A stretch of 64,000 bases of DNA from a phage. The translations under genes and the position numbers were made by a program. The notes under the pieces were generated by a model. The model did not search any database. It saw nothing but the letters and a program-made list of their open reading frames with translations, and was not told where the DNA came from. The stretch lies in the NCBI GenBank assembly GCA_025677605.1, contig GCA_025677605.1_4110.1; one strand, 5' to 3'. Position 1 is the first letter of the stretch, and each line of letters opens with the position of its first letter. This document shows, piece after piece, positions 33,648 through 46,219 of the stretch.

Positions 33648-33655
33648 CCACCAGC
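33648..33655 (-). other. Chi octamer (GCTGGTGG on minus strand)
   Basis: Plus strand reads CCACCAGC; intergenic. Confidence 0.8.
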
Positions 33656-33734
33656 AGATAGTTACTCACCGTTATTAACTATATATTTTAGATACACCTA
33701 TGCACCCGGTGGGCTAGTTTTTGTCTATGCGTAT

Positions 33735-33767
33735 ATAATAGCAAAGGGACTGACCGGAGTCAATCCC
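33735..33767 (-). promoter_or_regulatory. R-module copy 1: terminator hairpin with embedded promoter
   Basis: Hairpin GGGACTGAC / GTCAATCCC 33746..33767; -35 TTGACT 33758..33763; 17 bp; -10 TATTAT 33735..33740; conserved core 33699..33717. Confidence 0.5.
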
Positions 33768-33785
33768 TTTTTTTATTCTTTTTTG

Positions 33786-33986
33786 TTAGATGATCTTCCA
33801 ATCTTCCACGATCATTGTAAGATACCGAACCATCGATTCGAGTGATTCGAATTCACGATAATCTGTCGCCCCACCAGCGGTACAAGTACAGCCGATTAAG
33901 CCGGATTGTAGTTCCTGGATCTTTACGTCGATCAGGTTAGCTTTAGCATCTTTCAGTACTTCAACCAGGGCGATAGCGATAGACAT
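33786..33986 (-). CDS. Hypothetical small protein
   Basis: 66-aa ORF with its own promoter and hairpin; contains a Chi site. Confidence 0.55.
   Translation of the reverse strand: MSIAIALVEVLKDAKANLIDVKIQELQSGLIGCTCTAGGATDYREFESLESMVRYLTMIVEDWKII
33871..33878 (-). other. Chi octamer (minus strand)
   Basis: Plus strand reads CCACCAGC; inside a CDS. Confidence 0.8.
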
Positions 33987-34008
33987 AATGTTTTACTCCA
34001 AACTATTG

Positions 34009-34069
34009 GCGGGAGAACTATTCCCCCGCTCTATGTAAAACATTATACACTATATGATAGTACTGTCAA
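34009..34069 (-). promoter_or_regulatory. sigma70-type promoter plus leader hairpin
   Basis: -35 TTGACA 34064..34069; 16 bp; -10 TATAAT 34042..34047; hairpin GCGGGAGAA / TTCCCCCGC 34009..34029. Confidence 0.65.
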
Positions 34070-34075
34070 ATAGTT

Positions 34076-34333
34076 TTATGAGATATCCTCGATATAGTCG
34101 GCCCATTTCATTTTTTCAGTACTGTCAAGTGCAATCGGATTGTTAGGATCAAACCATTCACCATTACCGCAATACATCCCCACGGCAACGGTTTTATATC
34201 CATCCTGGGCCGTATTCCATGCAAGGCCACGATAGATACGGCCTTTAACTGGTTGCAGTACTGGTAACGTTTTATGGTCTTCTACGTAGGCCATAGCTTG
34301 AGGATTTACCCGATATTGTGTGAATTGTTCCAT
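34076..34333 (-). CDS. Hypothetical small protein (paralog of 34416..34682)
   Basis: Track ORF trimmed to MEQFTQYRV; the extension MFCIGEISSP is a translation of the promoter and hairpin. Confidence 0.6.
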   Translation of the reverse strand: MEQFTQYRVNPQAMAYVEDHKTLPVLQPVKGRIYRGLAWNTAQDGYKTVAVGMYCGNGEWFDPNNPIALDSTEKMKWADYIEDIS

Positions 34334-34355
34334 GATGTTTCCCCTTTTAATATTG

Positions 34356-34410
34356 GGGGAGGATATCTCCCCTATGCAAAACATTATACACTATCAGTTA
34401 GTACTGTCAA
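34356..34410 (-). promoter_or_regulatory. sigma70-type promoter plus leader hairpin
   Basis: -35 TTGACA 34405..34410; 16 bp; -10 TATAAT 34383..34388; hairpin 34356..34372. Confidence 0.65.
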
Positions 34411-34415
34411 TACTA

Positions 34416-34682
34416 TCAATTAAATTTAGGATGTATTTCAATGTAGTCACAATAAGGAAAATATTCAATATAACGCGTAGTGATTGGATGTAACGGATCG
34501 GACCATACACCGTCACCCTCATAGCGTGCTATTGGGCCTTTTAAGTACTTTTGTTGTTTCCTTGACCAGTATATGGATTGATAGACTACACCAACGGCAG
34601 GAACAACGAGCGGGAGCATAGAGTGATCTAATACAACGGATTGATAATTTTTATTATAGCGATATGTTGTTTTCTTTTTCAT
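34416..34682 (-). CDS. Hypothetical small protein (paralog of 34076..34333)
   Basis: 88 aa; shares the pattern ..LP..P..G..Y....W......Y......Y.G.G.W.DP..PI. Confidence 0.6.
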   Translation of the reverse strand: MKKKTTYRYNKNYQSVVLDHSMLPLVVPAVGVVYQSIYWSRKQQKYLKGPIARYEGDGVWSDPLHPITTRYIEYFPYCDYIEIHPKFN

Positions 34683-34734
34683 TGTTAACCTATTATAGAA
34701 ATTATTAAGGGGATATTATCATCCCCTTTTATTG

Positions 34735-34959
34735 TTATACTAGATTATTTAATCCTCTTATGGTTGATGCTTTTTCTTCTTTCTCCCATTGGCGGTAATA
34801 CTTCCATGCTTCGTGATAGGTGGCGATCAGTTTATCTTTCTCTTCCTGGGGGCTATTCAGGAATGTATCCCGATAATCAGTACTATAGATTACATCGAAT
34901 GGTTTTTTCTCAAAGGCCAGGTCTGCAACTACTGATTCAAGTACTTCGTATGTGGTCAT
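34735..34959 (-). CDS. Hypothetical small protein
   Basis: 74-aa ORF. Confidence 0.55.
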   Translation of the reverse strand: MTTYEVLESVVADLAFEKKPFDVIYSTDYRDTFLNSPQEEKDKLIATYHEAWKYYRQWEKEEKASTIRGLNNLV

Positions 34960-34977
34960 GATATTACACCTTTTAGT

Positions 34978-35034
34978 GGGGGAGGATATCTCCCCCTATG
35001 CAAAACATTATACTTTGTTTTACTTACTATGCAA
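34978..35034 (-). promoter_or_regulatory. sigma70-type promoter plus leader hairpin
   Basis: -35 TTGCAT 35029..35034 (overlaps the stop of the upstream gene); 16 bp; -10 TATAAT 35007..35012; hairpin 34978..34996. Confidence 0.65.
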
Positions 35035-35290
35035 GTACTTTTTTCATATAAAGGTTATATTCTACACCGCCGTAACCTTCTACGATGATATGTTTTGCGT
35101 TATCACGTTTGCACATAGTGAAACCGTTGTTGATGTGTTCTGCATTTTCCAGGGATACATCACCGATAGCGGCACATACAGCACTTATAACAGTATTCCG
35201 CAAAGTACTGGTATCGTTAGCGGTCATAGTAGTTTGCAGTACTACGTTGTCGTATACGTGTGCATTGATAGTGATTTCGATAGTGTTCAT
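35027..35290 (-). CDS. Hypothetical small protein
   Basis: 87-aa ORF; GGAG SD. Confidence 0.6.
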   Translation of the reverse strand: MNTIEITINAHVYDNVVLQTTMTANDTSTLRNTVISAVCAAIGDVSLENAEHINNGFTMCKRDNAKHIIVEGYGGVEYNLYMKKVLA

Positions 35291-35308
35291 GGTGTATCTC
35301 CTGGACTT

Positions 35309-35369
35309 GAGGGGAAACCATTTCCCCTCTCGATATAAAACATTATACGTTAATCTAACTACAATGCAA
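35309..35369 (-). promoter_or_regulatory. sigma70-type promoter plus leader hairpin
   Basis: -35 TTGCAT 35364..35369; 16 bp; -10 TATAAT 35342..35347; hairpin GAGGGGAAA / TTTCCCCTC 35309..35329. Confidence 0.65.
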
Positions 35370-35376
35370 GTACTTT

Positions 35377-35568
35377 TTAAATTTTATTTCCGATATAGTC
35401 CGGCCTATTCTTTTCAGTCATACGCTTTGCTAATGTTTGTATATGGCTTATCGCGTTTAAGGTGTCTTCCTCCAGGGATGAATCAACATAATCAGGATCA
35501 TTCTTAACCTTGCAATGATTATGATAGCGTAGTACTGCAAGTACTTTTTTAACTTCTTCAACTGTCAT
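35377..35568 (-). CDS. Hypothetical small protein
   Basis: 63-aa ORF; ATGA coupling to 35565..35837. Confidence 0.55.
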   Translation of the reverse strand: MTVEEVKKVLAVLRYHNHCKVKNDPDYVDSSLEEDTLNAISHIQTLAKRMTEKNRPDYIGNKI

Positions 35569-35837
35569 AATAAGTATTCCACTTCGTTAGCTTTCAGGTT
35601 AGTATCAATCATTAGTGGATTTTTGTAGTCCACAAAACGTTTAGTTTTCTCGATAGCGAAGCCCATATAATCCATCTTGCTTACAGTGCATTCATTCTTA
35701 AAAACTTCTTTCGCTGCATTGATGGCTGATTCCATTGATAACCGACCATCTAAGTTAATATTTCCAAATGATCCACCAGCAGAAGTAGGATTACCGTTCA
35801 TATCTTTAATGATCATAGTAGCGGAGTAGCTAGACAT
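35565..35837 (-). CDS. Hypothetical small protein
   Basis: 90-aa ORF; contains a Chi site. Confidence 0.6.
   Translation of the reverse strand: MSSYSATMIIKDMNGNPTSAGGSFGNINLDGRLSMESAINAAKEVFKNECTVSKMDYMGFAIEKTKRFVDYKNPLMIDTNLKANEVEYLL
35773..35780 (-). other. Chi octamer (minus strand)
   Basis: Plus strand reads CCACCAGC; inside a CDS. Confidence 0.8.
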
Positions 35838-35859
35838 AATTTTGTTTCCTTTTATTGGT

Positions 35860-35918
35860 GGGGAGAACTATTCTCCCCTTGATGTAAACTATTATACAGT
35901 ACTGATATACTTTGTCAA
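35860..35918 (-). promoter_or_regulatory. sigma70-type promoter plus leader hairpin
   Basis: -35 TTGACA 35913..35918; 16 bp; -10 TATAAT 35891..35896 (TG-extended); hairpin GGGGAGAA / TTCTCCCC 35860..35878. Confidence 0.7.
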
Positions 35919-35924
35919 GTACTT

Positions 35925-36329
35925 TTATTCGCCCATATAGATTAGATTATCATCGCCCACATAGGGATCGCAAACGTTGATTTCTTCGCAGTACTTAGTG
36001 AATACATCGTCATAGTGACCGATATCACGATCCCAAAAGCCAGTACCGTGACCTTCGCGAGTAAGAAAGAGATCATGACCTGCATGATTATAAGTATAAT
36101 CAGGATTATGGTGTTTTTGTACTGCTTCCATTTCATTACTAAACTTTTCAAGGAAACGAGAACATGCAATCACCGCCGCTTGATGGGCTTGCTCTGATAA
36201 TTCGTAATCTTCCAGGTAGTCGCCGTTCTCATTGTGTACAGTACTGAATTGCATAGCTTCAATGTAACCAGCGACCATAGCAGCATGATTTTTATCGTTG
36301 GCGATGTTCCGGGCTTGATTAGTAGTCAT
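35925..36329 (-). CDS. Hypothetical protein
   Basis: 134-aa ORF. Confidence 0.6.
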   Translation of the reverse strand: MTTNQARNIANDKNHAAMVAGYIEAMQFSTVHNENGDYLEDYELSEQAHQAAVIACSRFLEKFSNEMEAVQKHHNPDYTYNHAGHDLFLTREGHGTGFWDRDIGHYDDVFTKYCEEINVCDPYVGDDNLIYMGE

Positions 36330-36348
36330 GATTTTATTCCTTTGTGCT

Positions 36349-36407
36349 GGGGAGAACTATTCTCCCCTTGATGAAAACTATTATACAGTACTAAGATACT
36401 TTGTCAA
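36349..36407 (-). promoter_or_regulatory. sigma70-type promoter plus leader hairpin
   Basis: -35 TTGACA 36402..36407; 16 bp; -10 TATAAT 36380..36385; hairpin 36349..36367. Confidence 0.7.
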
Positions 36408-36410
36408 TAC

Positions 36411-36632
36411 TTAATTACGTTTAAAATGATATGTGCCTTTATCATCCTGTACGCCCCATACTGATTTACCATCAACACCAGTGAAGCCGGATTGTAATTC
36501 AATATGGAAACCATTATTATCAACTACAAAAACTTTTTTATTTTCATCCCGATAACATTGATATTCTGAATCAACATTAAAGGCCGCATCATTCAGAAGA
36601 TTGGAAGCGTAAATGCAAGTCATTGTAGTCAT
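36411..36632 (-). CDS. Hypothetical small protein
   Basis: Track ORF 36411..36707 trimmed to MTTMTCIY; the extension covers the hairpin and promoter. Confidence 0.55.
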   Translation of the reverse strand: MTTMTCIYASNLLNDAAFNVDSEYQCYRDENKKVFVVDNNGFHIELQSGFTGVDGKSVWGVQDDKGTYHFKRN

Positions 36633-36651
36633 GATTTTATTCCTTATTACC

Positions 36652-36712
36652 AGGGAGAACCGTTCCCCCCTCTCGATATAAAACATTATACTTGATTCTA
36701 AGTACAATGCAA
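36652..36712 (-). promoter_or_regulatory. sigma70-type promoter plus leader hairpin
   Basis: -35 TTGCAT 36707..36712; 16 bp; -10 TATAAT 36685..36690; hairpin 36652..36671. Confidence 0.65.
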
Positions 36713-36807
36713 GTACTTTTTAAAAATAGTTTTCAGTACTGACAATACTTATATTATAGATACACTTATGCACCCTATGGGTCAGTGAGTTATCTCTCAA
36801 TGACTAT

Positions 36808-36840
36808 ATAATAGCAAAGGGACTGACTGGAGTCAATCCC
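36808..36840 (-). promoter_or_regulatory. R-module copy 2: terminator hairpin with embedded promoter
   Basis: Hairpin 36819..36840; -35 TTGACT 36831..36836; 17 bp; -10 TATTAT 36808..36813; core 36768..36785. Confidence 0.5.
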
Positions 36841-36854
36841 TTTTTTAATCTTTT

Positions 36855-37439
36855 TTATCGTGTTATAGTTACGGCTTTTACGTCGCGTTGTTTATAGTAC
36901 TGATTCCAGATATTGCGGGTTAAACCGTAATCAAGTACTTTAATCAGGCCATTGCGATCTTGGCCTATGTTCTGCTTTCTGATATCTCTTATCGTTAGTG
37001 TTGATAAGGTATCATCAACGTGTTGTAGTGCATCAGCGAAATGGTGTTGGCGTTCAATAGTGTTACGTTTGACATTGTACTTTAATTCATTGCAAGCGTT
37101 AACGTGCTTTACACTGCCTTTGCTTGCAGTACTCAAACGATCCATAACAATAAACATATTATCAGGATCGCTTAAATGCATATGCACCTTAGCAAAGTAC
37201 TGTTTAAGGTGAGGGCGGTCATAATCTAAAAAATTCCATACCTTACATTCTGTTTCATTTTGTTCTACGCCAGCGTCACAATTAGCGACCTTAATCACTA
37301 ACCGATCATTTAAAGCGAATACGATACGGGATGATCCGGCCCCGATGATCTCCAGACCAGCCAACCGACAAGCTGTAAGGATCTCTTTGTTAGTTTCCAT
37401 TTCTGCCAGTGTACGGATGAATTTAGTATAATTACGCAT
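36855..37439 (-). CDS. Small protein kinase-like protein (Ser/Thr kinase fold)
   Basis: 194 aa. Gly-loop GAGSSRIVF; VIKVA (VAIK-like Lys); catalytic-loop-like IRDIRKQN; KVLDYG (DFG-like). Confidence 0.6.
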   Translation of the reverse strand: MRNYTKFIRTLAEMETNKEILTACRLAGLEIIGAGSSRIVFALNDRLVIKVANCDAGVEQNETECKVWNFLDYDRPHLKQYFAKVHMHLSDPDNMFIVMDRLSTASKGSVKHVNACNELKYNVKRNTIERQHHFADALQHVDDTLSTLTIRDIRKQNIGQDRNGLIKVLDYGLTRNIWNQYYKQRDVKAVTITR

Positions 37440-37459
37440 TGCATTTACTCTTTAAGATA

Positions 37460-37519
37460 GCAGGGAGGTATTCCCTGCCTTGATGTGACTATTATATGTT
37501 AGTACTAATTAGATTGCAA
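37460..37519 (-). promoter_or_regulatory. sigma70-type promoter plus leader hairpin
   Basis: -35 TTGCAA 37514..37519; 17 bp; -10 TATAAT 37491..37496; hairpin GCAGGGA / TCCCTGC 37460..37478. Confidence 0.6.
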
Positions 37520-37736
37520 CAGTTTTATTTGCAATTACAGAATGAATTGCGGTTTTACCTGATTTAGTACTGAATACATTAGCACGACCATTTTCAATAG
37601 TGATGCGGTATTCACCTTTACTATCAATGAGGTTGATAAATTCAGGAGTACTAAACCGAGTTACTTTAAAAGTCAGTACATTGAGTAGGTCCACCAGCGT
37701 AGTAGTTTCTTTGATGCGTTCTAAGATATTAATCAT
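37509..37736 (-). CDS. Hypothetical small protein
   Basis: 75-aa ORF; contains a Chi site. Confidence 0.55.
   Translation of the reverse strand: MINILERIKETTTLVDLLNVLTFKVTRFSTPEFINLIDSKGEYRITIENGRANVFSTKSGKTAIHSVIANKTVAI
37691..37698 (-). other. Chi octamer (minus strand)
   Basis: Plus strand reads CCACCAGC; inside a CDS. Confidence 0.8.
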
Positions 37737-37765
37737 TTTGTTTCTCCCCGTGTTGGTATAGATAC

Positions 37766-37794
37766 ATAGTACTAAAACAATTGAGTACTGTCAA
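37766..37794 (-). promoter_or_regulatory. sigma70-type promoter (repeat copy 1)
   Basis: -35 TTGACA 37789..37794; 17 bp; -10 TACTAT 37766..37771; about 58 bp nearly identical to 38011..38070. Confidence 0.6.
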
Positions 37795-38013
37795 TTAGAT
37801 AATTGCATATTTCTTTAAAGATAATGCGTCTTGTGTTGGCTGATACTCGATACCGTTACCGTTATCTACTTTAACTAATAAACCTTTGTCAATTAGTTTT
37901 TTAATAGTCCGTTGGCCTTGTTGAAAATTGGTAAAATGTGAATCATTACGAAAGGTATAACCGTGCTTAACTGCTTCATCAATAGTTTTCTTTTCGATTT
38001 TAGATAATTTCAT
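37795..38013 (-). CDS. Hypothetical small protein, possible winged-helix DNA binder
   Basis: Track ORF trimmed to MKLSKIEKK (the extension covers the promoter). The wHTH suggestion rests only on a ..TIKKLIDKGLLVKV.. helix-strand pattern. Confidence 0.45.
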   Translation of the reverse strand: MKLSKIEKKTIDEAVKHGYTFRNDSHFTNFQQGQRTIKKLIDKGLLVKVDNGNGIEYQPTQDALSLKKYAII

Positions 38014-38041
38014 TTTGTTTCTCCCGTGTTGGTATAGATAC

Positions 38042-38070
38042 ATAGTACTAAAACAATTGAGTACTGTCAA
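38042..38070 (-). promoter_or_regulatory. sigma70-type promoter (repeat copy 2)
   Basis: -35 TTGACA 38065..38070; 17 bp; -10 TACTAT 38042..38047. Confidence 0.6.
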
Positions 38071-38321
38071 CGTGATATTAGTTTTATTTTCTTATTATAT
38101 TGTTGGTGTTCATATAGGTTTATCTTTCCTGTATTCTCGATTACTATTCTGTTGTTGGTGTCCACGTCGATTACACGCAGTTTGCCGTTGCTTAACTTCC
38201 TGGGCAATAGATTACCATTAATAAACTCATTAGCAAGCTGTACGGCCTTTGTGATGATTCTCTGTGGTGCTTTATAGTGTACCCGCAAGATATTATCTTT
38301 TGATAGTTGAACCTTAATCAT
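38067..38321 (-). CDS. Hypothetical small protein
   Basis: 84-aa ORF. Confidence 0.55.
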   Translation of the reverse strand: MIKVQLSKDNILRVHYKAPQRIITKAVQLANEFINGNLLPRKLSNGKLRVIDVDTNNRIVIENTGKINLYEHQQYNKKIKLISR

Positions 38322-38335
38322 TTTAGTTTATCCTA

Positions 38336-38361
38336 TAAAAAAGGCGGGAACTGATCCCGCC
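38336..38361 (-). terminator. Rho-independent terminator
   Basis: Minus-strand hairpin GGCGGGA-UCAGU-UCCCGCC followed by UUUUUUAU. Confidence 0.7.
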
Positions 38362-38383
38362 GTGTTGTTAGTACTGCAAGTTA

Positions 38384-38788
38384 TTAGATAACCTGGCGGC
38401 GTTTACTGTATACGGTAACACGGTTTCCCTTACGGTCATGACGGATCTCTCGTTTGTTGCGAATCAGTTCACTTGGACGCTTCAGGTTTACCAGGTGATC
38501 CGCGTGAGTCCATGCATTCGAATTTACCTGTACTTTAATATCAGAACCAGCGATAAATTCATCTTGAGCGTTAAGTACTGCTGACAGTTCATCAGCTTTC
38601 TTCTGTTCTGCTGCTGTCAGTACTGGCTCCGGTGAATTCACAATATCAGAGATTTCTTTGAACTGTACGGCCCAGCGTTGACCTTTCGGTGCGGTCGTGC
38701 CCATGTCTTTAAATGCTGCTCCTTCCTCGCGTGCAACAATACGGGCAGCTTCACGGGTAGCGTAGAATTTAGTAATCATGGTATACAT
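38384..38788 (-). CDS. Hypothetical protein (paralog of 50198..50464)
   Basis: 134 aa; shares FYATREAAR..GA.FKDMG...G.RWAV and C-terminal HDRKGNRVTVYS. Confidence 0.6.
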   Translation of the reverse strand: MYTMITKFYATREAARIVAREEGAAFKDMGTTAPKGQRWAVQFKEISDIVNSPEPVLTAAEQKKADELSAVLNAQDEFIAGSDIKVQVNSNAWTHADHLVNLKRPSELIRNKREIRHDRKGNRVTVYSKRRQVI

Positions 38789-38823
38789 CCTATTAGTTAA
38801 GTTAGTACTACAAGTTAGAGTCT

Positions 38824-38852: not shown

Positions 38853-38874
38853 ATAGTACTTTAAATGGATTCTA

Positions 38875-41139: not shown

Positions 41140-41150
41140 TTCCTCTTAGT

Positions 41151-41208: not shown

Positions 41209-41292
41209 TTACTTTTTAGTACTTATTTAAACGCTCTCAATCGCATTCTAACGAGCTAATCTATTTTGTAGTACTATCGGATAGGTATATAC

Positions 41293-41323
41293 TAAAAAGC
41301 CCACCAGCGTTAACCAGTGGGCT
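41293..41323 (-). terminator. Rho-independent terminator (Chi in the loop)
   Basis: AGCCCAC..GTGGGCT stem followed by UUUUU on the minus strand; the loop carries the Chi at 41301..41308. Confidence 0.6.
41301..41308 (-). other. Chi octamer (minus strand)
   Basis: Plus strand reads CCACCAGC. Confidence 0.8.
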
Positions 41324-41329
41324 ATAATC

Positions 41330-41473
41330 TTACATCTTGCGGATAATCTTAACAGTATCTTTCACCGATTTACCGTCTTGCTGGCATTGTTCGATCATTG
41401 CGTATTGTTCTGCGGTCAGATCTTCGCCAGTTTTTGCCAGTACTGCTTCGATGAATGAATCCAGTGCGATCAT
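41330..41473 (-). CDS. Small hypothetical protein (47 aa, not in ORF track)
   Basis: Hand translation MIALDSFIEAVLAKTGEDLTAEQYAMIEQCQQDGKSVKDTVKIIRKM; has its own promoter and terminator. Confidence 0.5.
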   Translation of the reverse strand: MIALDSFIEAVLAKTGEDLTAEQYAMIEQCQQDGKSVKDTVKIIRKM

Positions 41474-41517
41474 TTTGTTTCTCTCTTAGGTTAAGTTAAC
41501 TACTGTTTATAAAACTT

Positions 41518-41545
41518 ATTATACAGTACTATCAAACTATGTCAA
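41518..41545 (-). promoter_or_regulatory. sigma70-type promoter
   Basis: -35 TTGACA 41540..41545; 16 bp; -10 TATAAT 41518..41523. Confidence 0.65.
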
Positions 41546-41572
41546 TATCTTTAATAGTACTGGTAATATATT

Positions 41573-41752
41573 TTAGCGGTAGTCGTCGTATGCTTTATTC
41601 ACCTGGCGAATGTAACTTTCAAAGGCTTCGTCTACCGTTTCATACTCCCGAACATAATCACCATAGGAAACTACATACATCCCTTTTTGATCTTCAAACG
41701 TCATGATGATAGAATCCAGGCCGATGATTTCAGTTTTTGCGATGATAGCCAT
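41573..41752 (-). CDS. Hypothetical small protein (related to 45097..45309)
   Basis: Track ORF 41573..41815 trimmed to MAIIAKTE, because the track start lies inside the -35 of its own promoter; AAGGAA SD. Confidence 0.55.
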   Translation of the reverse strand: MAIIAKTEIIGLDSIIMTFEDQKGMYVVSYGDYVREYETVDEAFESYIRQVNKAYDDYR

Positions 41753-41786
41753 TTTTAATTCCTTAGTAGTGTAGTTGATAAAATCT

Positions 41787-41815
41787 ATTATGCCAGTACT
41801 ATCAATCTTTGTCAA
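41787..41815 (-). promoter_or_regulatory. sigma70-type promoter (repeat family with 45049 and 45345)
   Basis: -35 TTGACA 41810..41815; 17 bp; -10 CATAAT 41787..41792. Confidence 0.6.
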
Positions 41816-41834
41816 TAGTACTGTGATAATATTT

Positions 41835-42047
41835 TTAATCGATAATGGTTAATGTAAAGTTATAATCACCGCATCGATATAGCACGTTATTCCCAAATGT
41901 TCCAACCAATCGCACATCACACAAAACGCCAGTTTTTTCTTTTACTTCCTTGATACTTGTAACTCCTGTAATATCTTTATTAAAGTATTCATGGTCTGAA
42001 AATAAAACTTGTTTTGCATTTTTCAATTTCGACCGGATATTAGCCAT
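41835..42047 (-). CDS. Hypothetical small protein
   Basis: 70-aa ORF. Confidence 0.55.
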   Translation of the reverse strand: MANIRSKLKNAKQVLFSDHEYFNKDITGVTSIKEVKEKTGVLCDVRLVGTFGNNVLYRCGDYNFTLTIID

Positions 42048-42069
42048 TTTGTTTTCTCTCTCTGTTAGT

Positions 42070-42128
42070 GGGGAGAACTATTCTCCCCTTGATGTAAACT
42101 ATTATACAGTACTATAATCTATTGTCAA
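42070..42128 (-). promoter_or_regulatory. sigma70-type promoter plus leader hairpin
   Basis: -35 TTGACA 42123..42128; 16 bp; -10 TATAAT 42101..42106; hairpin GGGGAGAA / TTCTCCCC 42070..42088. Confidence 0.7.
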
Positions 42129-42142
42129 ACTATTTTTTAATA

Positions 42143-42484
42143 TTATTCGAAATCTTCTGGACCGGACTGATAATCATCTTCACCGTATGCACTTTCTAAC
42201 TTCTCGCCAGTGCAATCATCAGTTAGTGAGTCATCCTCATAGTTCACGTCTACGCCCGTGATGTAAAACTGGCTATCGTATGGATCATTGAAATTAATTT
42301 TCTGAATGTTTACAATAACTGTATTGATGCCCAGGACACCGCCATCAGCCGTTACAAAGTACTGATAGTTTTCACATCCACCACTATTGAAACCGTAATT
42401 GATTTCGGCCCGACCATCATTTAAACGCAGTGCCTGAGCGATGAATTCGTTTTCAAAGTTAGATTGAGCAATTGCAATAGTCAT
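42143..42484 (-). CDS. Hypothetical acidic protein
   Basis: 113-aa ORF. Confidence 0.6.
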   Translation of the reverse strand: MTIAIAQSNFENEFIAQALRLNDGRAEINYGFNSGGCENYQYFVTADGGVLGINTVIVNIQKINFNDPYDSQFYITGVDVNYEDDSLTDDCTGEKLESAYGEDDYQSGPEDFE

Positions 42485-42503
42485 GATTCGTTTCCTTATT
42501 ACC

Positions 42504-42563
42504 AGGGGAAACGGTTTCCCCTTGCTATGTAAAACATTATACTTGATTCTAAGTACAATGCAA
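42504..42563 (-). promoter_or_regulatory. sigma70-type promoter plus leader hairpin
   Basis: -35 TTGCAT 42558..42563; 16 bp; -10 TATAAT 42536..42541; hairpin 42504..42522. Confidence 0.65.
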
Positions 42564-42583
42564 GTACTTTTTGCAAAATACTT

Positions 42584-42766
42584 TTAATCCCTTTGATACT
42601 CACATAACGCCATATCATACGCAATTGACGCTGATTTGAAATCATCGTGTCGCTCAATCTCTTTCATGTCAACATAGATGATCCATAGGTTTACGTCTTC
42701 CTGGCGTATGATAACGGCAGGTTTACCGATGATATGTGATGCCGCTAGTTCGATTGGATTAAACAT
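42584..42766 (-). CDS. Hypothetical small protein
   Basis: 60-aa ORF. Confidence 0.5.
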   Translation of the reverse strand: MFNPIELAASHIIGKPAVIIRQEDVNLWIIYVDMKEIERHDDFKSASIAYDMALCEYQRD

Positions 42767-42847
42767 TGTAGTACTCCTTATTAGATTGATATATTTTATT
42801 TACACTTCCGCACCCTGTGGGCTAGTGAGCTATCTCTCAATGAATAT

Positions 42848-42879
42848 ATAATAGCAAAATGGCTGACCGAAGTCAACCA
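42848..42879 (-). promoter_or_regulatory. R-module copy 4: hairpin with embedded promoter
   Basis: Hairpin 42860..42879; -35 TTGACT 42871..42876; 17 bp; -10 TATTAT 42848..42853; core 42808..42825. Confidence 0.45.
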
Positions 42880-42885
42880 CTTTTT

Positions 42886-43023
42886 TCATTTATTTTTAGC
42901 TTTTAGAATCGCCGCTTTTCGCGTCATGCCTTGCTTGATGTACTCCTTTACTTTCGCTTTACGTGCTTTCGCTTTATCTGCTTTCGTTTTAGGAGTACTG
43001 TAAATTAAACCGTTAGGATTCAT
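42886..43023 (-). CDS. Small basic protein (45 aa, not in ORF track)
   Basis: Hand translation MNPNGLIYSTPKTKADKAKARKAKVKEYIKQGMTRKAAILKAKNK. Confidence 0.45.
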   Translation of the reverse strand: MNPNGLIYSTPKTKADKAKARKAKVKEYIKQGMTRKAAILKAKNK

Positions 43024-43113
43024 TTAAATCACCATAAAGAATAGATAGGTTACTAACAATGCCGCGATCAATGCACCGATCACCGCCGAACTGTAATAAG
43101 CCAATGATTTCAT
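43024..43113 (-). CDS. Small hydrophobic peptide (29 aa, not in ORF track)
   Basis: Hand translation MKSLAYYSSAVIGALIAALLVTYLFFMVI; ATGA coupling. Confidence 0.4.
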   Translation of the reverse strand: MKSLAYYSSAVIGALIAALLVTYLFFMVI

Positions 43114-43262
43114 TTTTTAGCCTGGAAGTAATGTTTAATTTGTGCGGCGGTCAATGCACAATTACGCAGGAAGTTTTCTGTATAACTGCGACGAGTACTG
43201 AAAGAAAATTGACCTTTGCCGTTGCCGATAGTAACATCAAACCGAGCATTATATTGTTTCAT
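43110..43262 (-). CDS. Small hypothetical protein (50 aa, not in ORF track)
   Basis: Hand translation MKQYNARFDVTIGNGKGQFSFSTRRSYTENFLRNCALTAAQIKHYFQAKK; GGAG SD after the hairpin. Confidence 0.5.
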   Translation of the reverse strand: MKQYNARFDVTIGNGKGQFSFSTRRSYTENFLRNCALTAAQIKHYFQAKK

Positions 43263-43281
43263 TTTGATTCTCCTAGTATCA

Positions 43282-43343
43282 GGGGAGAACCATTTCCCCC
43301 CCCTCTATGTAAAACATTATACAGTACTAAAAACTAATTGCAA
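43282..43343 (-). promoter_or_regulatory. sigma70-type promoter plus leader hairpin
   Basis: -35 TTGCAA 43338..43343; 16 bp; -10 TATAAT 43316..43321; hairpin about 43282..43301. Confidence 0.65.
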
Positions 43344-43346
43344 GTA

Positions 43347-43493
43347 CTATTTTTTAGATTTACGCAAACTTTCTACCATCTCAGGAGTAAGGCCCGGCGG
43401 GTAGGAAACCACTTCATCAACGAAACGTAAAGGGAATACCCCAGCGAAAGGTGAACATGCTTTCTTAGTATTACTCTTTTTTGATGCTTTCAT
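43347..43493 (-). CDS. Small hypothetical protein (48 aa, not in ORF track)
   Basis: Hand translation MKASKKSNTKKACSPFAGVFPLRFVDEVVSYPPGLTPEMVESLRKSKK. Confidence 0.45.
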   Translation of the reverse strand: MKASKKSNTKKACSPFAGVFPLRFVDEVVSYPPGLTPEMVESLRKSKK

Positions 43494-43512
43494 TTCATAT
43501 TCCTTAATTAGT

Positions 43513-43572
43513 GGGAAGTACTATTTCTCCCCTTCATGTAAAACATTATACAGTACTAAAAACTAATTGCAA
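43513..43572 (-). promoter_or_regulatory. sigma70-type promoter plus weak leader hairpin
   Basis: -35 TTGCAA 43567..43572; 16 bp; -10 TATAAT 43545..43550. Confidence 0.6.
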
Positions 43573-43575
43573 GTA

Positions 43576-43818
43576 TTATTTTAAACTTTGTGCGACTAAT
43601 TTCGCACGGTCAATCATATACTGCCATTTTTTGATCTCTTCTGGTAGAAAACGATATTCACCAATAACAATAGTGATACACTTTTCAGCCTGGTCAATGT
43701 ATGTAGTGTCAATCTCGACTTGAACGGGTACACGTTCGCCGTAATCAGTGCCAGGGATAATACAATCATTATCATAAGTAACAGTAGTAGCAGTGTCTTT
43801 GATTAAAATTGTTTCCAT
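43576..43818 (-). CDS. Hypothetical small protein
   Basis: 80-aa ORF. Confidence 0.55.
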   Translation of the reverse strand: METILIKDTATTVTYDNDCIIPGTDYGERVPVQVEIDTTYIDQAEKCITIVIGEYRFLPEEIKKWQYMIDRAKLVAQSLK

Positions 43819-43840
43819 TATACTTTCCTCGTTAGGTGTA

Positions 43841-43898
43841 AGGGGAAAAAGTTTCCCCTCTATGTAAACAATTATACAGTACTGAAAACTAATTGCAA
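43841..43898 (-). promoter_or_regulatory. sigma70-type promoter plus leader hairpin
   Basis: -35 TTGCAA 43893..43898 (in the 3' end of the upstream CDS); 16 bp; -10 TATAAT 43871..43876; hairpin 43841..43859. Confidence 0.65.
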
Positions 43899-44098
43899 GT
43901 ATTATTTTCTAAAAAATGATTGTATGCTGCATCAACCACTCTTTCGATAACATACGCCAACGGCACGTATCCAACTACATGACTACAATAGAAAGGACTA
44001 CGATTAGAATCATCGTATGCAAATACTTTACCAGGTACGGCATCAATCACATACATATTAACCTTTAAGATGTCGATCTTATCCTGTACAGTAAGCAT
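43889..44098 (-). CDS. Hypothetical small protein
   Basis: Track ORF 43889..44125 trimmed to MLTVQDKI, which begins 1 nt after the stop of 44100..44270. Confidence 0.5.
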   Translation of the reverse strand: MLTVQDKIDILKVNMYVIDAVPGKVFAYDDSNRSPFYCSHVVGYVPLAYVIERVVDAAYNHFLENNTCN

Positions 44099-44099
44099 A

Positions 44100-44270
44100 T
44101 TACGCCGCCTTATCAGTACTAGCAACCGGACGGATACGGGCCATCGCCTGGGCTTGTTCTACGCTGTATTGTTCGTATAGTCTGCATTCTTCCGGTGTAG
44201 GAATAGCATCAATACGTTTCATTGGTTTAATGATGCTTTCAACTTCATTCAGTACTTGATTAACGTTCAT
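44100..44270 (-). CDS. Small hypothetical protein (56 aa, not in ORF track)
   Basis: Hand translation MNVNQVLNEVESIIKPMKRIDAIPTPEECRLYEQYSVEQAQAMARIRPVASTDKAA; GAGGA SD. Confidence 0.5.
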   Translation of the reverse strand: MNVNQVLNEVESIIKPMKRIDAIPTPEECRLYEQYSVEQAQAMARIRPVASTDKAA

Positions 44271-44321
44271 GGTATTATCCTCAATATTAGCGGCCTAAAT
44301 CAACCGCTAACGATGTTTTGA

Positions 44322-44591
44322 TTAATAGGTGTATGGTTGACGCTCAAACAATGAATAGACGTTATACGCCCCGCTAATGGGCTTCGCTGGCAAATCAATT
44401 TTATATTGTTCACGCTTAAAGATAATAAAACGGCAATTGTTTTTTACATCAAAATTGATTGAACGTTCCAGGAGTTTTCCATCGTGTACAAATACAAGAT
44501 AACCGCTTGGTACTTGTTTTGTAGTACTGGTTGCAACCATAGACCGACGAACATGCGTACCTGCATCGATTAAAGTACTGATATTTTTCAT
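44322..44591 (-). CDS. Hypothetical small protein
   Basis: 89-aa ORF. Confidence 0.55.
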   Translation of the reverse strand: MKNISTLIDAGTHVRRSMVATSTTKQVPSGYLVFVHDGKLLERSINFDVKNNCRFIIFKREQYKIDLPAKPISGAYNVYSLFERQPYTY

Positions 44592-44637
44592 TATACTATC
44601 CTCTTAAGTTAATTTAATTTCTTTCCCCTATGCAGAC

Positions 44638-44666
44638 ACTATATCAAAGTATCTGCATAAAGTAAA
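44638..44666 (-). promoter_or_regulatory. sigma70-type promoter
   Basis: -35 TTTACT 44661..44666; 17 bp; -10 TATAGT 44638..44643; flanked by the 7-bp inverted repeat ATGCAGA / TCTGCAT. Confidence 0.5.
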
Positions 44667-44671
44667 GCTAA

Positions 44672-45016
44672 TTAAAGATCTTTTTTGCGTTTAACATCAG
44701 TTACCGAACTGTAAACAGTGATATTATTGTCACGGCAAAAACGGGAAAGATAAGAACCGCGTAAAAACTCTTTACCTTCCATATCAATAACCTTGCTAAA
44801 TTCATCCATTGCTACGGTGTCAAAGTGATCCCCGTATCCATATTGGAACGGCACGTTTACTACTTCAATAAAATTACCATCAATTTCTACGTCTACACTT
44901 AAAGAGAAATAAGTGTTACCATATGAAGCCTGGAACCAACGCCGAGCGGCAATATGTACAACTTCAACAGAAGACAGGTTGATATTTTGTGCTGTGATAG
45001 TGTTGATGTTAGCCAT
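44672..45016 (-). CDS. Hypothetical protein (paralog of 38875..39198)
   Basis: 114 aa; GNTYFS, FQYGYG, C-terminal DVKRKKDL. Confidence 0.6.
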   Translation of the reverse strand: MANINTITAQNINLSSVEVVHIAARRWFQASYGNTYFSLSVDVEIDGNFIEVVNVPFQYGYGDHFDTVAMDEFSKVIDMEGKEFLRGSYLSRFCRDNNITVYSSVTDVKRKKDL

Positions 45017-45048
45017 TTTTAGTTTCCTCAGTTGTTTTGATAAAATCT

Positions 45049-45077
45049 ATTATGCCAGTACTATCAATCTATGTCAA
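45049..45077 (-). promoter_or_regulatory. sigma70-type promoter
   Basis: -35 TTGACA 45072..45077; 17 bp; -10 CATAAT 45049..45054. Confidence 0.6.
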
Positions 45078-45096
45078 TAGTACTGTGATAATAATT

Positions 45097-45309
45097 TTAC
45101 TTACTTTCTTTCGATGCTTTATGTTGTGCAACTGCCATTACTACATCAGCACGAACAAAGTTTTTAACCGTGTCAGTGTAATAATTGATTGCATCGTCTA
45201 TATCTGCGAACGTCCGATACATACCGCACCAAGATACTTTATAACCTGCTTTCACTTGTTCCAGCTTAACCAGTGATTTGTTTACTTTGATTTTAGTAAT
45301 GATAGCCAT
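45097..45309 (-). CDS. Hypothetical small protein
   Basis: 70-aa ORF; N-terminus MAIITK resembles that of 41573..41752. Confidence 0.55.
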   Translation of the reverse strand: MAIITKIKVNKSLVKLEQVKAGYKVSWCGMYRTFADIDDAINYYTDTVKNFVRADVVMAVAQHKASKESK

Positions 45310-45344
45310 TTTTTGTTTCCTCTTAGTTGTCTTGATAAAATCTA

Positions 45345-45372
45345 TTATGCCAGTACTATCAAACTATGTCAA
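45345..45372 (-). promoter_or_regulatory. sigma70-type promoter
   Basis: -35 TTGACA 45367..45372; 16 bp; -10 CATAAT 45345..45350. Confidence 0.6.
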
Positions 45373-45391
45373 TAGTACTGTGATAATATTT

Positions 45392-45535
45392 TTACTTACT
45401 TTTTGCTTTCTTTGCTGCTTCCACCTGGTCGGCCCACTCTTTACCCCATACTTGAGCATTATAGTGATACTGACAAAGAGCAACGCCCCGCTTCAAACCA
45501 GTAATAGATTTTTTACCACATTGACAAGTTTTCAT
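45392..45535 (-). CDS. Small Cys-containing protein (47 aa, not in ORF track)
   Basis: Hand translation MKTCQCGKKSITGLKRGVALCQYHYNAQVWGKEWADQVEAAKKAKSK. Confidence 0.45.
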   Translation of the reverse strand: MKTCQCGKKSITGLKRGVALCQYHYNAQVWGKEWADQVEAAKKAKSK

Positions 45536-45552
45536 TTTAGTTTCCTCTTAGT

Positions 45553-45613
45553 GGGGAGAACCATTTTCTCCCCTTGATGTAATGTATTATACTTTATCTG
45601 ATTTACTTTGCAA
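45553..45613 (-). promoter_or_regulatory. sigma70-type promoter plus leader hairpin
   Basis: -35 TTGCAA 45608..45613; 16 bp; -10 TATAAT 45586..45591; hairpin 45553..45573. Confidence 0.65.
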
Positions 45614-45622
45614 GTACTTTTT

Positions 45623-45850
45623 TTAATTTAATTCATCCAGGCAAAGGATACGCTCAACGCCCAAATCAGTTAAACTAATAGACGGCACTTGATAGGTTTC
45701 AACGTATTCTACACTCGCCCACTGACCGAACTCATTCACCGCCCAGGTATTCATTGCAAAATGTAATTCCGCACCTTTCTTATTAGTAATTACAGCAACA
45801 GTAGAAGAATTGCCAGTAGTACCAGATACGCGAGTGATTACGATAGCCAT
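45623..45850 (-). CDS. Hypothetical small protein
   Basis: 75-aa ORF. Confidence 0.55.
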   Translation of the reverse strand: MAIVITRVSGTTGNSSTVAVITNKKGAELHFAMNTWAVNEFGQWASVEYVETYQVPSISLTDLGVERILCLDELN

Positions 45851-45883
45851 TGTTTTGATTCCTATTCAGTAGTTGATGTATGT

Positions 45884-45912
45884 ATTATCGCAGTACTTAA
45901 AACTATTGTCAA
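45884..45912 (-). promoter_or_regulatory. sigma70-type promoter
   Basis: -35 TTGACA 45907..45912; 17 bp; -10 GATAAT 45884..45889. Confidence 0.6.
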
Positions 45913-45920
45913 ACTATTTT

Positions 45921-46073
45921 TTAAAGTTTATCAATGATTGATGCCGTTTCATTGATAGTCTTGCCGTGTTTTGCACACGCGATAACTGCTTTAAATTCCT
46001 TTGATGACCAATCTTTTTTACTGCATACTGACATTACTTGTAAAGTGAAACAATCCAGTTCATAAGTATTCAT
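45921..46073 (-). CDS. Small hypothetical protein (50 aa, not in ORF track)
   Basis: Hand translation MNTYELDCFTLQVMSVCSKKDWSSKEFKAVIACAKHGKTINETASIIDKL; GAGGA SD. Confidence 0.45.
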   Translation of the reverse strand: MNTYELDCFTLQVMSVCSKKDWSSKEFKAVIACAKHGKTINETASIIDKL

Positions 46074-46117
46074 CTTTATATCCTCAGTTAGTTAAGGTGT
46101 CTCGCCTTGATGAAATT

Positions 46118-46145
46118 AATTATACGCTAATCTCTTAATCGTGCA
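46118..46145 (-). promoter_or_regulatory. sigma70-type promoter
   Basis: -35 TTGCAC 46140..46145; 16 bp; -10 TATAAT 46118..46123. Confidence 0.6.
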
Positions 46146-46211
46146 AGTACTTTTTATTAGTTTTTGCAAAATACTTTAAACGCCCGCAATCGCATTCTAA
46201 CGACCTTAACG

Positions 46212-46219
46212 CCACCAGC
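46212..46219 (-). other. Chi octamer (minus strand)
   Basis: Plus strand reads CCACCAGC; intergenic, inside a 9-bp-stem inverted repeat (ATTCTAACG / CGTTAGAAT). Confidence 0.8.

Follow-up and report, generated by a model that had tools for sequence, protein, structure and literature searches.

Within 12.6 kb of phage DNA, the octamer GCTGGTGG, the Chi site of E. coli, occurs eight times on the same strand, which raises the question of whether these sites have been selected to act on the host enzyme RecBCD. An exact search of the window (the whole stretch of DNA that was analysed, 64 kb) agrees with the original prediction of eight co-oriented copies, none of them opposite or elsewhere. The minus-strand copies start at positions 33648, 33871, 35773, 37691, 40040, 41033, 41301 and 46212, the plus strand carries no copy in the whole 64 kb, and there is none in the 42.8 kb of the window outside the ~21-kb repeat region that holds the cluster. 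Within the 12.6-kb span, the density of 1 per 1.6 kb indeed exceeds that of the E. coli chromosome with about 1 Chi per 4.6 kb (PMC12315714); over the repeat described below, it amounts to 1 per 2.7 kb. The local GC content, given beforehand as about 40%, is 37-40% (about 38% for the repeat) and 0.31-0.36 outside the repeat. In 100 dinucleotide-preserving shuffles, the mean was 0.38 copies and the maximum three, and Markov models of order 0-4 predicted 0.11-0.41 copies on the minus strand. The models were trained on the 21-kb region itself, and the GC content and skew of the repeat are thus built into the expectation. Both types of control had been proposed together with an estimate of far fewer than one copy, and both stay far below eight.

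The window derives from an E. coli jumbo phage of the 121Q/A4-like type, an Asteriusvirus, and by homology the Chi cluster lies inside the counterpart of the direct terminal repeat (DTR; ~21 kb) of these phages. The DTR homologue (32280..53475, minus strand) contains about 55 small early genes, none of which is on the plus strand. Positions 1-21525 of phage vB_Ec-M-J, annotated as Direct Terminal Repeats, align to 53460-32414 of the window. Moreover, PhageTerm and restriction digests have established the termini of the fEgEco12 DTR, 20,993 bp in length, experimentally (PMC13070987), and the junction segments of this DTR correspond to ~53,475 and ~32,280 of the window. The physical ends are predicted near 53,475 (left) and 32,280 (right), each within about 100 bp. 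Restriction enzymes cut the DNA of fEgEco12 in agreement with the in silico prediction (PMC13070987), so that it is probably not heavily modified. In relatives, a perfect palindrome, CCACCAGC-N4-GCTGGTGG, is also present at a distance of 0.5-0.6 kb from the left terminus. The location in the terminal repeat, which was not part of the original prediction, confines the cluster and would supply a recombination partner. A genome-wide map of Chi relative to the termini, which had been suggested as a check, was made for fEgEco12 and revealed that Chi is concentrated in the DTR, with 12 sites per 21-kb repeat, compared with 24 in the unique part of the genome, which spans 333 kb (binomial p=6e-7). 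This corresponds to 1 Chi per 1.75 kb and 1 per 13.9 kb, respectively, an about 8-fold difference.

The enrichment is specific to the exact Chi octamer. The eight exact copies compare with three copies in total for all 24 one-mismatch neighbours, and in the region G follows each GCTGGTG and precedes each CTGGTGG. Among the 8-mers with at least six G/C positions, none is commoner there than Chi, and only words of a repeated early-promoter module are more over-represented. These data bear on the view that the octamers emerged without any selection for Chi, from a higher GC content, a G-rich coding strand, a preference for GCT and GGT codons and terminator stems (AGCCCACC/GGTGGGCT) that are one step away from Chi. 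The GC content of the repeat does exceed that of the rest of the genome. However, models trained on the repeat expect at most 0.4 copies, and the one-mismatch neighbours show no enrichment.

As had been noted, four sites are intergenic and four lie within different small ORFs, all on the minus strand. Three of the genic sites read GCT-GGT-GGN in frame and encode Ala-Gly-Gly, namely 33871..33878 in ORF 33786-33986 (GCT-GGT-GGg), 35773..35780 in ORF 35565-35837 (GCT-GGT-GGa) and 41033..41040 in ORF 40945-41139 (GCT-GGT-GGa). The fourth, at 37691..37698 in ORF 37509-37736, is read as xxG-CTG-GTG-Gxx (Leu-Val). The common codon pattern would fit an origin without selection, but the tripeptide (4 observed versus 1.0 expected) and its Chi spelling (three of four versus 0.56 expected) are both in excess. 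Among the intergenic sites, the first (33648..33655) is located ~1.4 kb to the high-coordinate side of the predicted right terminus and immediately upstream of a sigma-70-like promoter, and the last (46212..46219) is ~13.9 kb from this terminus. The site at 40040..40047 belongs to a repeated hairpin-promoter module, in which it provides the 3' arm of the hairpin (CUAGCCCACCGG...GCUGGUGGCUAG). In line with the earlier mention of one site in a terminator loop, the site at 41301-41308 falls on an intrinsic terminator (41298..41323, minus strand; AGCCCACTGGTTAACGCTGGTGGGCT and then TTTTT; centroid -17.3 kcal/mol, z -2.6) and makes up its loop and 3' arm; the 5' arm pairs by G-U wobbles, which avoids a Chi on the opposite strand. 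GC-rich stems akin to the terminator family overlap with two or three of the intergenic sites, and TAGCCCAC occurs six times, which again would be compatible with a mere by-product of composition.

Two sites had been placed beforehand at the same spot of repeated modules, and those at 33648 and 40040 are both situated directly 5' of the AGT(ACT)GAAAACTATT box of the hairpin-promoter module and have different flanks; two further copies of the module lack Chi. Such contexts could mean that the octamer is the recognition site of a phage-encoded factor controlling transcription, packaging or injection on the repeat, and that its identity with Chi is coincidental. In favour of this, half of the sites are intergenic, several are found in hairpins or beside the repeated promoter module, and the palindrome of the relatives resembles a protein-binding or structural element. 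However, the other half lies in unrelated ORFs, the spacing to promoters and terminators is not fixed, and Chi is present near only two of the four modules and 2 of about 29 CAGTACTG boxes. Furthermore, the motif is the exact 8-base Chi of the hosts, almost without one-mismatch relatives.

Comparison with related phages points to selection on the sites. All eight are intact in A4, vB_Ec-M-J and fEgEco12 and seven in 121Q, which retains the site at 33648 and lacks that at 33871. The flanks are 75-99% identical, and at the observed flank divergence the chance of zero change over the 64 Chi bases is 8e-4 to 1.5e-3. The site at 37691 is intact despite flanks that are just 75-79% identical to vB_Ec-M-J, fEgEco12 and 121Q. 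The window also contains a decayed Chi in the opposite orientation (GCTGGGGG on the plus strand, 46274..46281), whose orthologue is intact in vB_Ec-M-J and fEgEco12 and broken in A4 by another substitution than in the window. Enrichment recurs in other jumbo-phage lineages. The Klebsiella phage fENko-Kae01 has 14 Chi sites within its 19.7-kb repeat, for which no Asteriusvirus orthologues were detectable except one short match at a terminator/promoter module. The Klebsiella phage Muenster has eight in its 20-kb repeat and none in the next 10 kb, and phage XbC2, for which the repeat length was assumed, has nine in the first 17 kb and none in the next 13 kb. Site conservation and independent enrichment in these lineages argue for selection. 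An origin from composition is already disfavoured and appears the least probable of the readings, since the sites are conserved beyond their flanks and enriched in three other lineages, with non-orthologous sites in fENko-Kae01. GCTGGTGG is not known to serve as Chi in Xanthomonas, the recorded host of XbC2, and the enrichment seen in this phage as well would suit a phage-encoded factor; however, the other species of its genus infect Enterobacterales. Altogether, we regard such a factor as unlikely.

The orientation of the sites has to be interpreted with care. Composition alone makes the gene strand 4-5 times likelier to carry Chi, and thus the 8:0 co-orientation, on which the original prediction had placed weight, is weak evidence by itself. 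Of the 24 Chi sites in the unique DNA of fEgEco12, 21 are likewise on the coding strand (positions read against annotation tables), and the gene-strand to opposite-strand ratio pooled over four lineages is 36:7, which is about what composition predicts, also without selection for Chi. It is therefore the positional test that speaks for orientation-specific selection. The mean fractional position is 0.60 for gene-strand and 0.24 for opposite-strand sites (within-lineage permutation p=0.002, with only seven opposite-strand sites and the assumed XbC2 repeat length). Gene-strand sites lie toward the right terminus and opposite-strand sites toward the left, so that RecBCD would read each orientation from the terminus that is closer to it.

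With a probability of roughly 0.6, we consider the eight octamers to be selectively maintained E. coli Chi sites in the DTR of a linear ~350-kb jumbo-phage genome, which would act on host RecBCD at the free right end for protection, repeat-by-repeat recombination, or both. The window sites would be active, as predicted, for an enzyme moving from low to high coordinates. The suggested geometry of end protection or recombination gains from the physical terminus placed by homology at ~32,280, on the low side, and gains little from the strand bias itself. In the right-hand repeat copy, all eight gene-strand sites would face the right physical terminus, and RecBCD loaded there would meet the first after about 1.4 kb and all eight within 14 kb. 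RecBCD recognises Chi with an efficiency of 20-40% per site, which would give a cumulative recognition of 83-98% across eight sites. At Chi, the enzyme would cease degrading the 3'-ended strand and load RecA. As a consequence, the genome end might survive, and the RecA filament would bear repeat sequence, for which the sole homologous partner is the other terminal repeat of the same or a sister genome; invasion of this repeat could generate circles or concatemers for replication and packaging. The sites themselves, their enrichment, their place in the repeat homologue, their conservation and their geometry are observed; the action of RecBCD on them, the choice of the exposed end and its timing, and protection or recombination as the selected effect are inferred.

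Several observations count against an action through Chi. According to their annotation, relatives in Asteriusvirus encode recombination proteins of their own that form a T4-like set (RecA/UvsX-like, UvsY-like, gp32, gp46/47-like and endonuclease VII). Known families of RecBCD inhibitors and end-binding proteins were excluded for most ORFs of the window; an unrecognised early protein of either type could make Chi irrelevant. Purines at positions +4 to +7 enhance Chi activity, and the flanking sequences show no enrichment at these positions (16 of 32), which, like the Xanthomonas host of XbC2, is unfavourable. Neither in the window's lineage nor in A4 does the left end carry a Chi in the correct orientation; should this end be the first to enter, as it is in T5, it could not be protected by the sites. 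RecBCD might also be exploited for immune evasion, as Chi would halt degradation near the injected end and leave few fragments for CRISPR spacers or degradation-sensing defences. In E. coli, naive CRISPR adaptation draws on the fragments that RecBCD produces from a DNA end up to the nearest Chi, and the geometry, with the first site 1.4 kb from the terminus and the cluster confined to terminal DNA, would be the same. However, no sequence feature separates evasion from protection or recombination, and one or two end-near sites would seem sufficient, yet 8-14 are spread along the repeat. This purpose appears about as improbable as a phage-encoded factor.

The selected-Chi reading has parallels in other phages. 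Phage P1 carries 50 Chi sites in 94.8 kb, which are denser toward the packaged ends, and RecBCD-dependent circularisation through terminal repeats has been proposed (bioRxiv 10.1101/2021.07.08.451572; PMC12315714). Like the Asteriusvirus repeat, P1 exceeds the Chi density of E. coli, concentrates Chi in terminally redundant DNA with both orientations toward the ends, and would use RecBCD/RecA recombination between terminal repeats, in its case to circularise injected linear DNA. However, P1 is temperate and packages headfuls from pac with variable redundancy, whereas Asteriusvirus, a myovirus of ~350 kb, is virulent and has fixed repeats of 21 kb. Moreover, Chi is abundant throughout P1 as its commonest octamer, while in Asteriusvirus it is ~8-fold enriched, confined to the repeat and not the commonest octamer; RecBCD dependence is experimental in P1 and inferred here. 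Chi-rich lambdoid phages without a Rec module comprise LLS and 71 others (PMC12315714; PMC3784561). In LLS, 20 of 23 Chi sites face the right end at about 1 per 1.9 kb, and growth enhancement by RecBCD has been measured (PMC12315714). The clustering toward the right end, oriented for RecBCD entry there, is shared with Asteriusvirus; unlike the relatives with their T4-like set, these phages encode neither a recombinase nor an inhibitor of RecBCD, and they have cos or pac ends instead of long direct repeats. The E. coli chromosome shares the identical octamer, located mainly on the coding or leading strand, which is G-rich, but its Chi sites are genome-wide and oriented with replication, whereas those of the phage are denser and confined to terminal DNA of just 38% GC. 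T5 resembles Asteriusvirus in its linear genome and long direct terminal repeats (in T5, the first-step-transfer DNA with the pre-early genes) packed with small genes under host-type promoters, and it still poses the question of how an exposed end evades RecBCD. The T5 repeat differs in its length (10 kb with two Chi versus 21 kb with 8-14), its main pre-early genes are read toward the first-entering end, and two-step injection is a T5 feature. These two are the only Chi sites in the first 50 kb of T5; both belong to the repeat, are carried by the plus strand and lie within 1.5-2.1 kb of the right repeat boundary.

The window contains eight exact copies of the Chi octamer GCTGGTGG, which is recognised by RecBCD of E. 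coli. As the original prediction had stated, all of them lie on the minus strand, and an exact search of the 64 kb uncovered no copy on the plus strand or outside the eight positions. The claimed excess over chance was also borne out, as the controls expect far fewer than eight sites. The number of Chi sites averaged 0.38 and never exceeded 3 in dinucleotide-preserving shuffles of the window; when trained on the 21-kb region that harbours the cluster, Markov models of order 0-4 predicted 0.11-0.41 copies on the minus strand and 0.03-0.09 on the plus strand. In the same region, the 24 one-mismatch variants of Chi together occur three times compared with eight exact copies, and each copy of the heptamers GCTGGTG and CTGGTGG sits within a full Chi site. 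Among the 8-mers with at least six G/C positions, Chi is the commonest, and it takes rank 23 by over-representation. Chi is not the most frequent octamer of the region, as would be typical of P1/LLS-type phages, because words of a promoter module reach 30 copies; the words outranking it in over-representation (CAGTACTG, TACTTGCA and GTATAATG) all belong to this module. Duplication of a Chi-bearing repeat was rejected as the source of the excess, since the flanks of the eight sites are mutually unrelated and two of the four copies of a hairpin-promoter module are devoid of Chi, in agreement with the earlier view that repeat duplication is not the sole cause. A or G at positions +4 to +7 is a favourable 3' context, which modulates the activity of Chi and does not define it (Taylor et al. 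2016). At the eight window sites, 16 of these 32 positions are purines, which is about background.

The DNA belongs to an Asteriusvirus, one of the 121Q/PBECO4-like jumbo myoviruses of E. coli, with a genome of about 350 kb. Its closest relative is phage A4 (98.6% identity over window positions 1-25000), for which E. coli LF82 served as isolation host; of the 78 matching records, 61 are Escherichia phages. The region carrying the Chi sites matches the annotated direct terminal repeats of the relatives vB_Ec-M-J and fEgEco12 from end to end. The annotation of vB_Ec-M-J assigns its first 21,525 bp to direct terminal repeats, and these align in reverse orientation to window positions 53,460-32,414. 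The terminal repeat of fEgEco12 comprises 20,993 bp, as determined with PhageTerm and by restriction mapping (PMC13070987); its two copies are identical, and its junctions map to window positions ~53,475 (left end) and ~32,280 (right end). By homology, the right terminus of the present phage is therefore predicted at ~32,280. The window holds a single copy of the repeat region with unique DNA on either side, which is the pattern that a collapsed repeat would leave in an assembly. The GC content is 0.37-0.40 inside the repeat region versus 0.31-0.36 outside, and the region contains about 55 small minus-strand ORFs and 32% non-coding DNA. On the minus strand, a scan of 32-48 kb revealed many intrinsic terminators as well as twelve perfect TTGACA-16/17-TATAAT promoters. 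The host-type promoters and the small co-oriented ORFs therefore mark an early region that is read by the host RNA polymerase.

The early-promoter module is present in dozens of copies on the minus strand of window positions 32000-54000, with 29 copies of CAGTACTG and 18-19 copies each of TACTTGCA and GTATAATG, and most of the small genes of the repeat region are individually provided with a terminator. The list of over-represented words is also headed by CAGTACTG in fEgEco12 and in the Mimasvirus XbC2. Four minus-strand copies of a hairpin with a 12-bp stem, AAAGGGATTGACTCCGGTCAGTCCCTTT, are located at 33743-33770, 36816-36843, 40108-40135 and 42856-42883. The hairpin holds a -35-like TTGACT and is itself followed by GCTATTATAT, so that a promoter seems to be embedded in it; a conserved CTAGCCCACCGGGTGCAT element comes after it. 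Moreover, about 16 tandem 8-bp units with the consensus ATCTAGCC occupy a stretch without convincing ORFs at 52584-52711, 0.8-0.9 kb inside the predicted left repeat end; this could be a protein-binding array, for instance for the control of packaging or injection.

A genome-wide Chi map was built on fEgEco12, which was used in place of the closest relative A4. Each of its repeat copies harbours 12 Chi sites, ten on the strand that carries the genes of the repeat and two on the opposite strand, corresponding to 1 per 1.75 kb, whereas the unique 332.7 kb contain 24 sites or 1 per 13.9 kb (binomial p=6e-7). Compared to the order-3 expectation, Chi is enriched about 20-fold in the repeat and only about 2-2.5-fold in the unique part. 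Thus, the comparison with a higher-order background that the original prediction had called for supports the enrichment and confines the cluster to the repeat. With 8 sites per 21.2 kb in the window and 12 per 21 kb in fEgEco12, the repeats exceed both chance and the E. coli chromosome, which has about 1 Chi site per 4.6 kb, while the unique genome of fEgEco12 lies below the chromosomal density. In addition to the strong preference for Chi in its repeat, fEgEco12 shows a weak one throughout the genome. In each of two ~120-kb sections of its unique region, five of seven Ala-Gly-Gly tripeptides are spelled as Chi, compared with 1.6-1.7 expected.

Chi-rich terminal repeats are not restricted to Asteriusvirus. 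Klebsiella phage fENko-Kae01, a member of a different genus cluster with ~29% ANI (Table 2 of PMC13070987), has 14 Chi sites in its PhageTerm-defined repeat of 19.7 kb (12 on the gene strand and two on the opposite strand) and five in the adjacent 30 kb. The 20-kb repeat of Klebsiella phage Muenster (Alcyoneusvirus) contains 7 + 1 sites on the gene and the opposite strand, with none in the next 10 kb, and XbC2 has 7 + 2 sites in its first 17 kb and none in the next 13 kb. In a comparison between lineages, which covered fENko-Kae01 and Asteriusvirus, no orthology of the Chi sites was detectable except for one short match at a terminator/promoter module. The recurrence of Chi-rich repeats in several lineages thus indicates a maintained property of this jumbo-phage clade rather than an accident of one sequence. 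The recorded host of XbC2 is Xanthomonas vesicatoria, and its positions 1-17000 have 39-42% GC and nine E. coli-type Chi sites. XbC2, the sole candidate for a non-enteric negative control, failed as such, since GCTGGTGG occurs nine times in its first 17 kb and the genus is otherwise found on Cronobacter and Pectobacterium. Xanthomonas may not be the main or ancestral host of XbC2. If the real or ancestral hosts of XbC2 are not enterobacteria like those of its genus, the recorded Xanthomonas host would speak for a role of the octamer that is intrinsic to the phage. A different Chi sequence, GCTGGCGC, is reported for Pseudomonas (PMC12315714).

The rule by which the direction of the sites had been read is correct: a minus-strand Chi site is recognised by a RecBCD enzyme moving from low to high coordinates, that is, from the right terminus at ~32,280. 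This terminus, which is placed by homology, lies on the 3' side of all eight sites, at distances of 1.4, 1.6, 3.5, 5.4, 7.8, 8.8, 9.0 and 13.9 kb, and the 7.3 kb adjoining the predicted left end of the window repeat contain no Chi site. However, the 8:0 co-orientation cannot be taken as a sign of directional selection, because strand composition alone would place about 80% of the sites on the gene strand. The order-3 Markov expectation for the gene strand exceeds that for the opposite strand 4-5-fold, and the ratio of 36:7 (gene to opposite strand) pooled over four lineages matches this bias, so strand bias was rejected as proof of directional selection. In the unique region of fEgEco12, 21 of the 24 sites are on the coding strand when their positions are read against the annotation. 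Both orientations are enriched, about 15-25-fold.

Unlike the strand ratio, the position of the sites is beyond what composition can explain. The mean fractional position along the repeat is 0.60 for gene-strand and 0.24 for opposite-strand sites (within-lineage permutation p=0.002, four lineages), a test that draws on seven opposite-strand sites and assumes a repeat of ~20 kb in XbC2. Furthermore, a perfect inverted Chi pair, CCACCAGC-N4-GCTGGTGG, is present in fEgEco12 (578-597 of record L002), vB_Ec-M-J (588-607 of L001), fENko-Kae01 (484-503 of L010) and 121Q (3035-3054 of L062). In the first three phages, 0.5-0.6 kb separate the pair from the left terminus; in 121Q the terminus is unmapped and the distance is only an estimate. 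The arms are kept and the 4-nt spacer varies between the phages. Among viral contigs, the pair occurs in 46 of mixed sizes, of which only one, the IMG/VR copy of 121Q, is a jumbo phage. The position bias and the left-end pair therefore suggest that each orientation tends toward the terminus from which RecBCD reads it. The cluster is confined to the terminal repeat, and across the four lineages the two orientations lie toward opposite termini. The inverted pair is absent from the window and from A4, which have lost both opposite-strand Chi sites, one of them by different single substitutions (GCTGGGGG at window positions 46274-46281 and CCACTAGC in A4).

A4, vB_Ec-M-J and fEgEco12 have an intact Chi at the orthologous position of each of the eight window sites, and 121Q has one at seven of them. 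Identity in the flanks (+/-100 bp) amounts to 75-99%, and given this identity the chance of finding all 64 bases unchanged is 8e-4 for vB_Ec-M-J and 1.5e-3 for fEgEco12. Three of the four genic sites are read as GCT-GGT-GGN. Ala-Gly-Gly occurs four times compared with 1.0 expected from the amino-acid frequencies, and it is spelled as Chi in three of the four cases, whereas codon usage predicts 0.56.

The best-supported interpretation of these sequence comparisons is that the eight sites are functional Chi sites, which would act at the free right end of the genome on RecBCD of the host. RecBCD recognises a Chi site with a probability of 20-40%. With eight sites, the repeat would switch 83-98% of the RecBCD molecules that enter it. 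Past Chi, RecBCD would spare the 3' strand and load RecA onto it. The spared strand would consist of repeat sequence, for which the other terminal repeat would be the sole homologue, and the outcome could be protection of the end, formation of circles or concatemers, or both. If the left end enters first, as in T5, the present lineage would be without protective Chi sites at this end.

Phages rich in Chi have already been known, and so has the idea that Chi aids the recombination of terminally redundant DNA. The latter was proposed for P1, and the same idea is applied here. The window cluster is also similar to those near the right end of lambdoid phages without recombination genes. However, fEgEco12 is annotated with RecA, a recombination mediator, gp32, gp46/47-like proteins and endonuclease VII, and these phages thus do not appear to lack a recombination module of their own. 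Unlike the Chi-rich P1 and lambdoid phages, they are virulent and very large, have repeats of fixed length, show the enrichment only in the repeat and have this T4-like recombination set annotated, which suggests that host recombination would be used early only or at the termini only. A similar arrangement may exist in T5, whose first 50 kb contain only two Chi sites (8127-8134 and 8689-8696), both on the plus strand. They lie in the 10.2-kb terminal repeat, 1.5-2.1 kb from its right boundary, and about 0.1 would be expected in 10 kb.

We give a chance of roughly one in three to a more general proposal, in which enterobacterial phages with long repeats (RaK2-like jumbo phages and perhaps T5) would carry an end-taming array. 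Outward-facing Chi sites of the terminal repeat would turn RecBCD from a destroyer into a RecA loader within 0.5-1.5 kb of either terminus, and the host enzyme would circularise or concatemerise the 350-kb genome repeat-by-repeat before the phage recombination genes are expressed. Phages that possess recombinases of their own would thus use host recombination at a specific stage. Alternatively, the phage could rely on an early RecBCD inhibitor or end-binding protein outside the known families. Members of the known families of inhibitors and end protectors were not detected among the 59 ORFs of the repeat, which were scanned with Pfam and PHROGs after concatenation with X linkers, or in eight of 17 packs of the other window ORFs scanned with PHROGs. 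These scans only matched HNH/NUMOD4, DUF7249, a ParE-like domain and families of unknown function, and the rest of the ~350-kb genome was judged from the product names of fEgEco12.

The action of Chi on RecBCD at the repeat ends would bear on two problems, namely the survival of large linear phage genomes, T5 included, when they are exposed to RecBCD within minutes of injection, and the conversion of terminal repeats into replicating circles or concatemers. The conserved, repeat-confined array makes the RecBCD question concretely and cheaply testable. According to the rule derived from P1 and LLS, Chi-rich phages borrow host recombination for want of their own. This rule would extend to virulent, very large phages with their own recombinases, which suggests that the borrowing can be limited in place (terminal DNA) and time (before phage gene expression). 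Moreover, the Chi content of the repeats could predict how jumbo phages that are candidates for therapy behave on rec-variant hosts or hosts with RecBCD-linked defence. In the searched literature, neither Chi nor RecBCD has been linked to Asteriusvirus or RaK2-like repeats, and the fEgEco12 paper nowhere mentions RecBCD (PMC13070987).

Several neighbouring genes deserve mention. Inside the repeat, minus-strand ORFs encode an HNH/NUMOD4 homing-endonuclease-like protein (51535-52044) and a protein with a ParE-like toxin domain (38067-38321; PF24732, E=1.6e-9), and in the repeat of Muenster genes for a YafQ-like toxin and a YeeU-like antitoxin are annotated. Toxin-antitoxin-like proteins may thus be among the earliest expressed genes. 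Just outside the predicted right boundary, a 273-aa endonuclease-like ORF (31382-32203, minus strand; phrog_681) is present in A4 and absent at the same position in fEgEco12. The left repeat boundary is adjoined by tandem minus-strand genes for proteins of 59-70 aa with a period of ~190-198 bp (53777-57607), and divergent from these are plus-strand paralogues of ~310-410 aa (57674-64000), which are annotated in relatives as RCC1-like 'chromosome condensation regulators'. Further arrays of small paralogous minus-strand genes of unknown function extend over 24900-31300 and 1-24600; they comprise about 20 proteins of ~70 aa with an LGTNYQ-like motif (phrog_4148) and dozens of proteins of 100-210 aa sharing the motif EE(E/L)(Y/F)FQxS(L/T). 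Finally, a minus-strand ORF at 6092-7504 encodes a 470-aa protein resembling methyl-accepting chemotaxis proteins, in which a transmembrane N-terminus precedes an MCP-type signalling domain; it carries the same annotation in A4 and is unusual in a phage.
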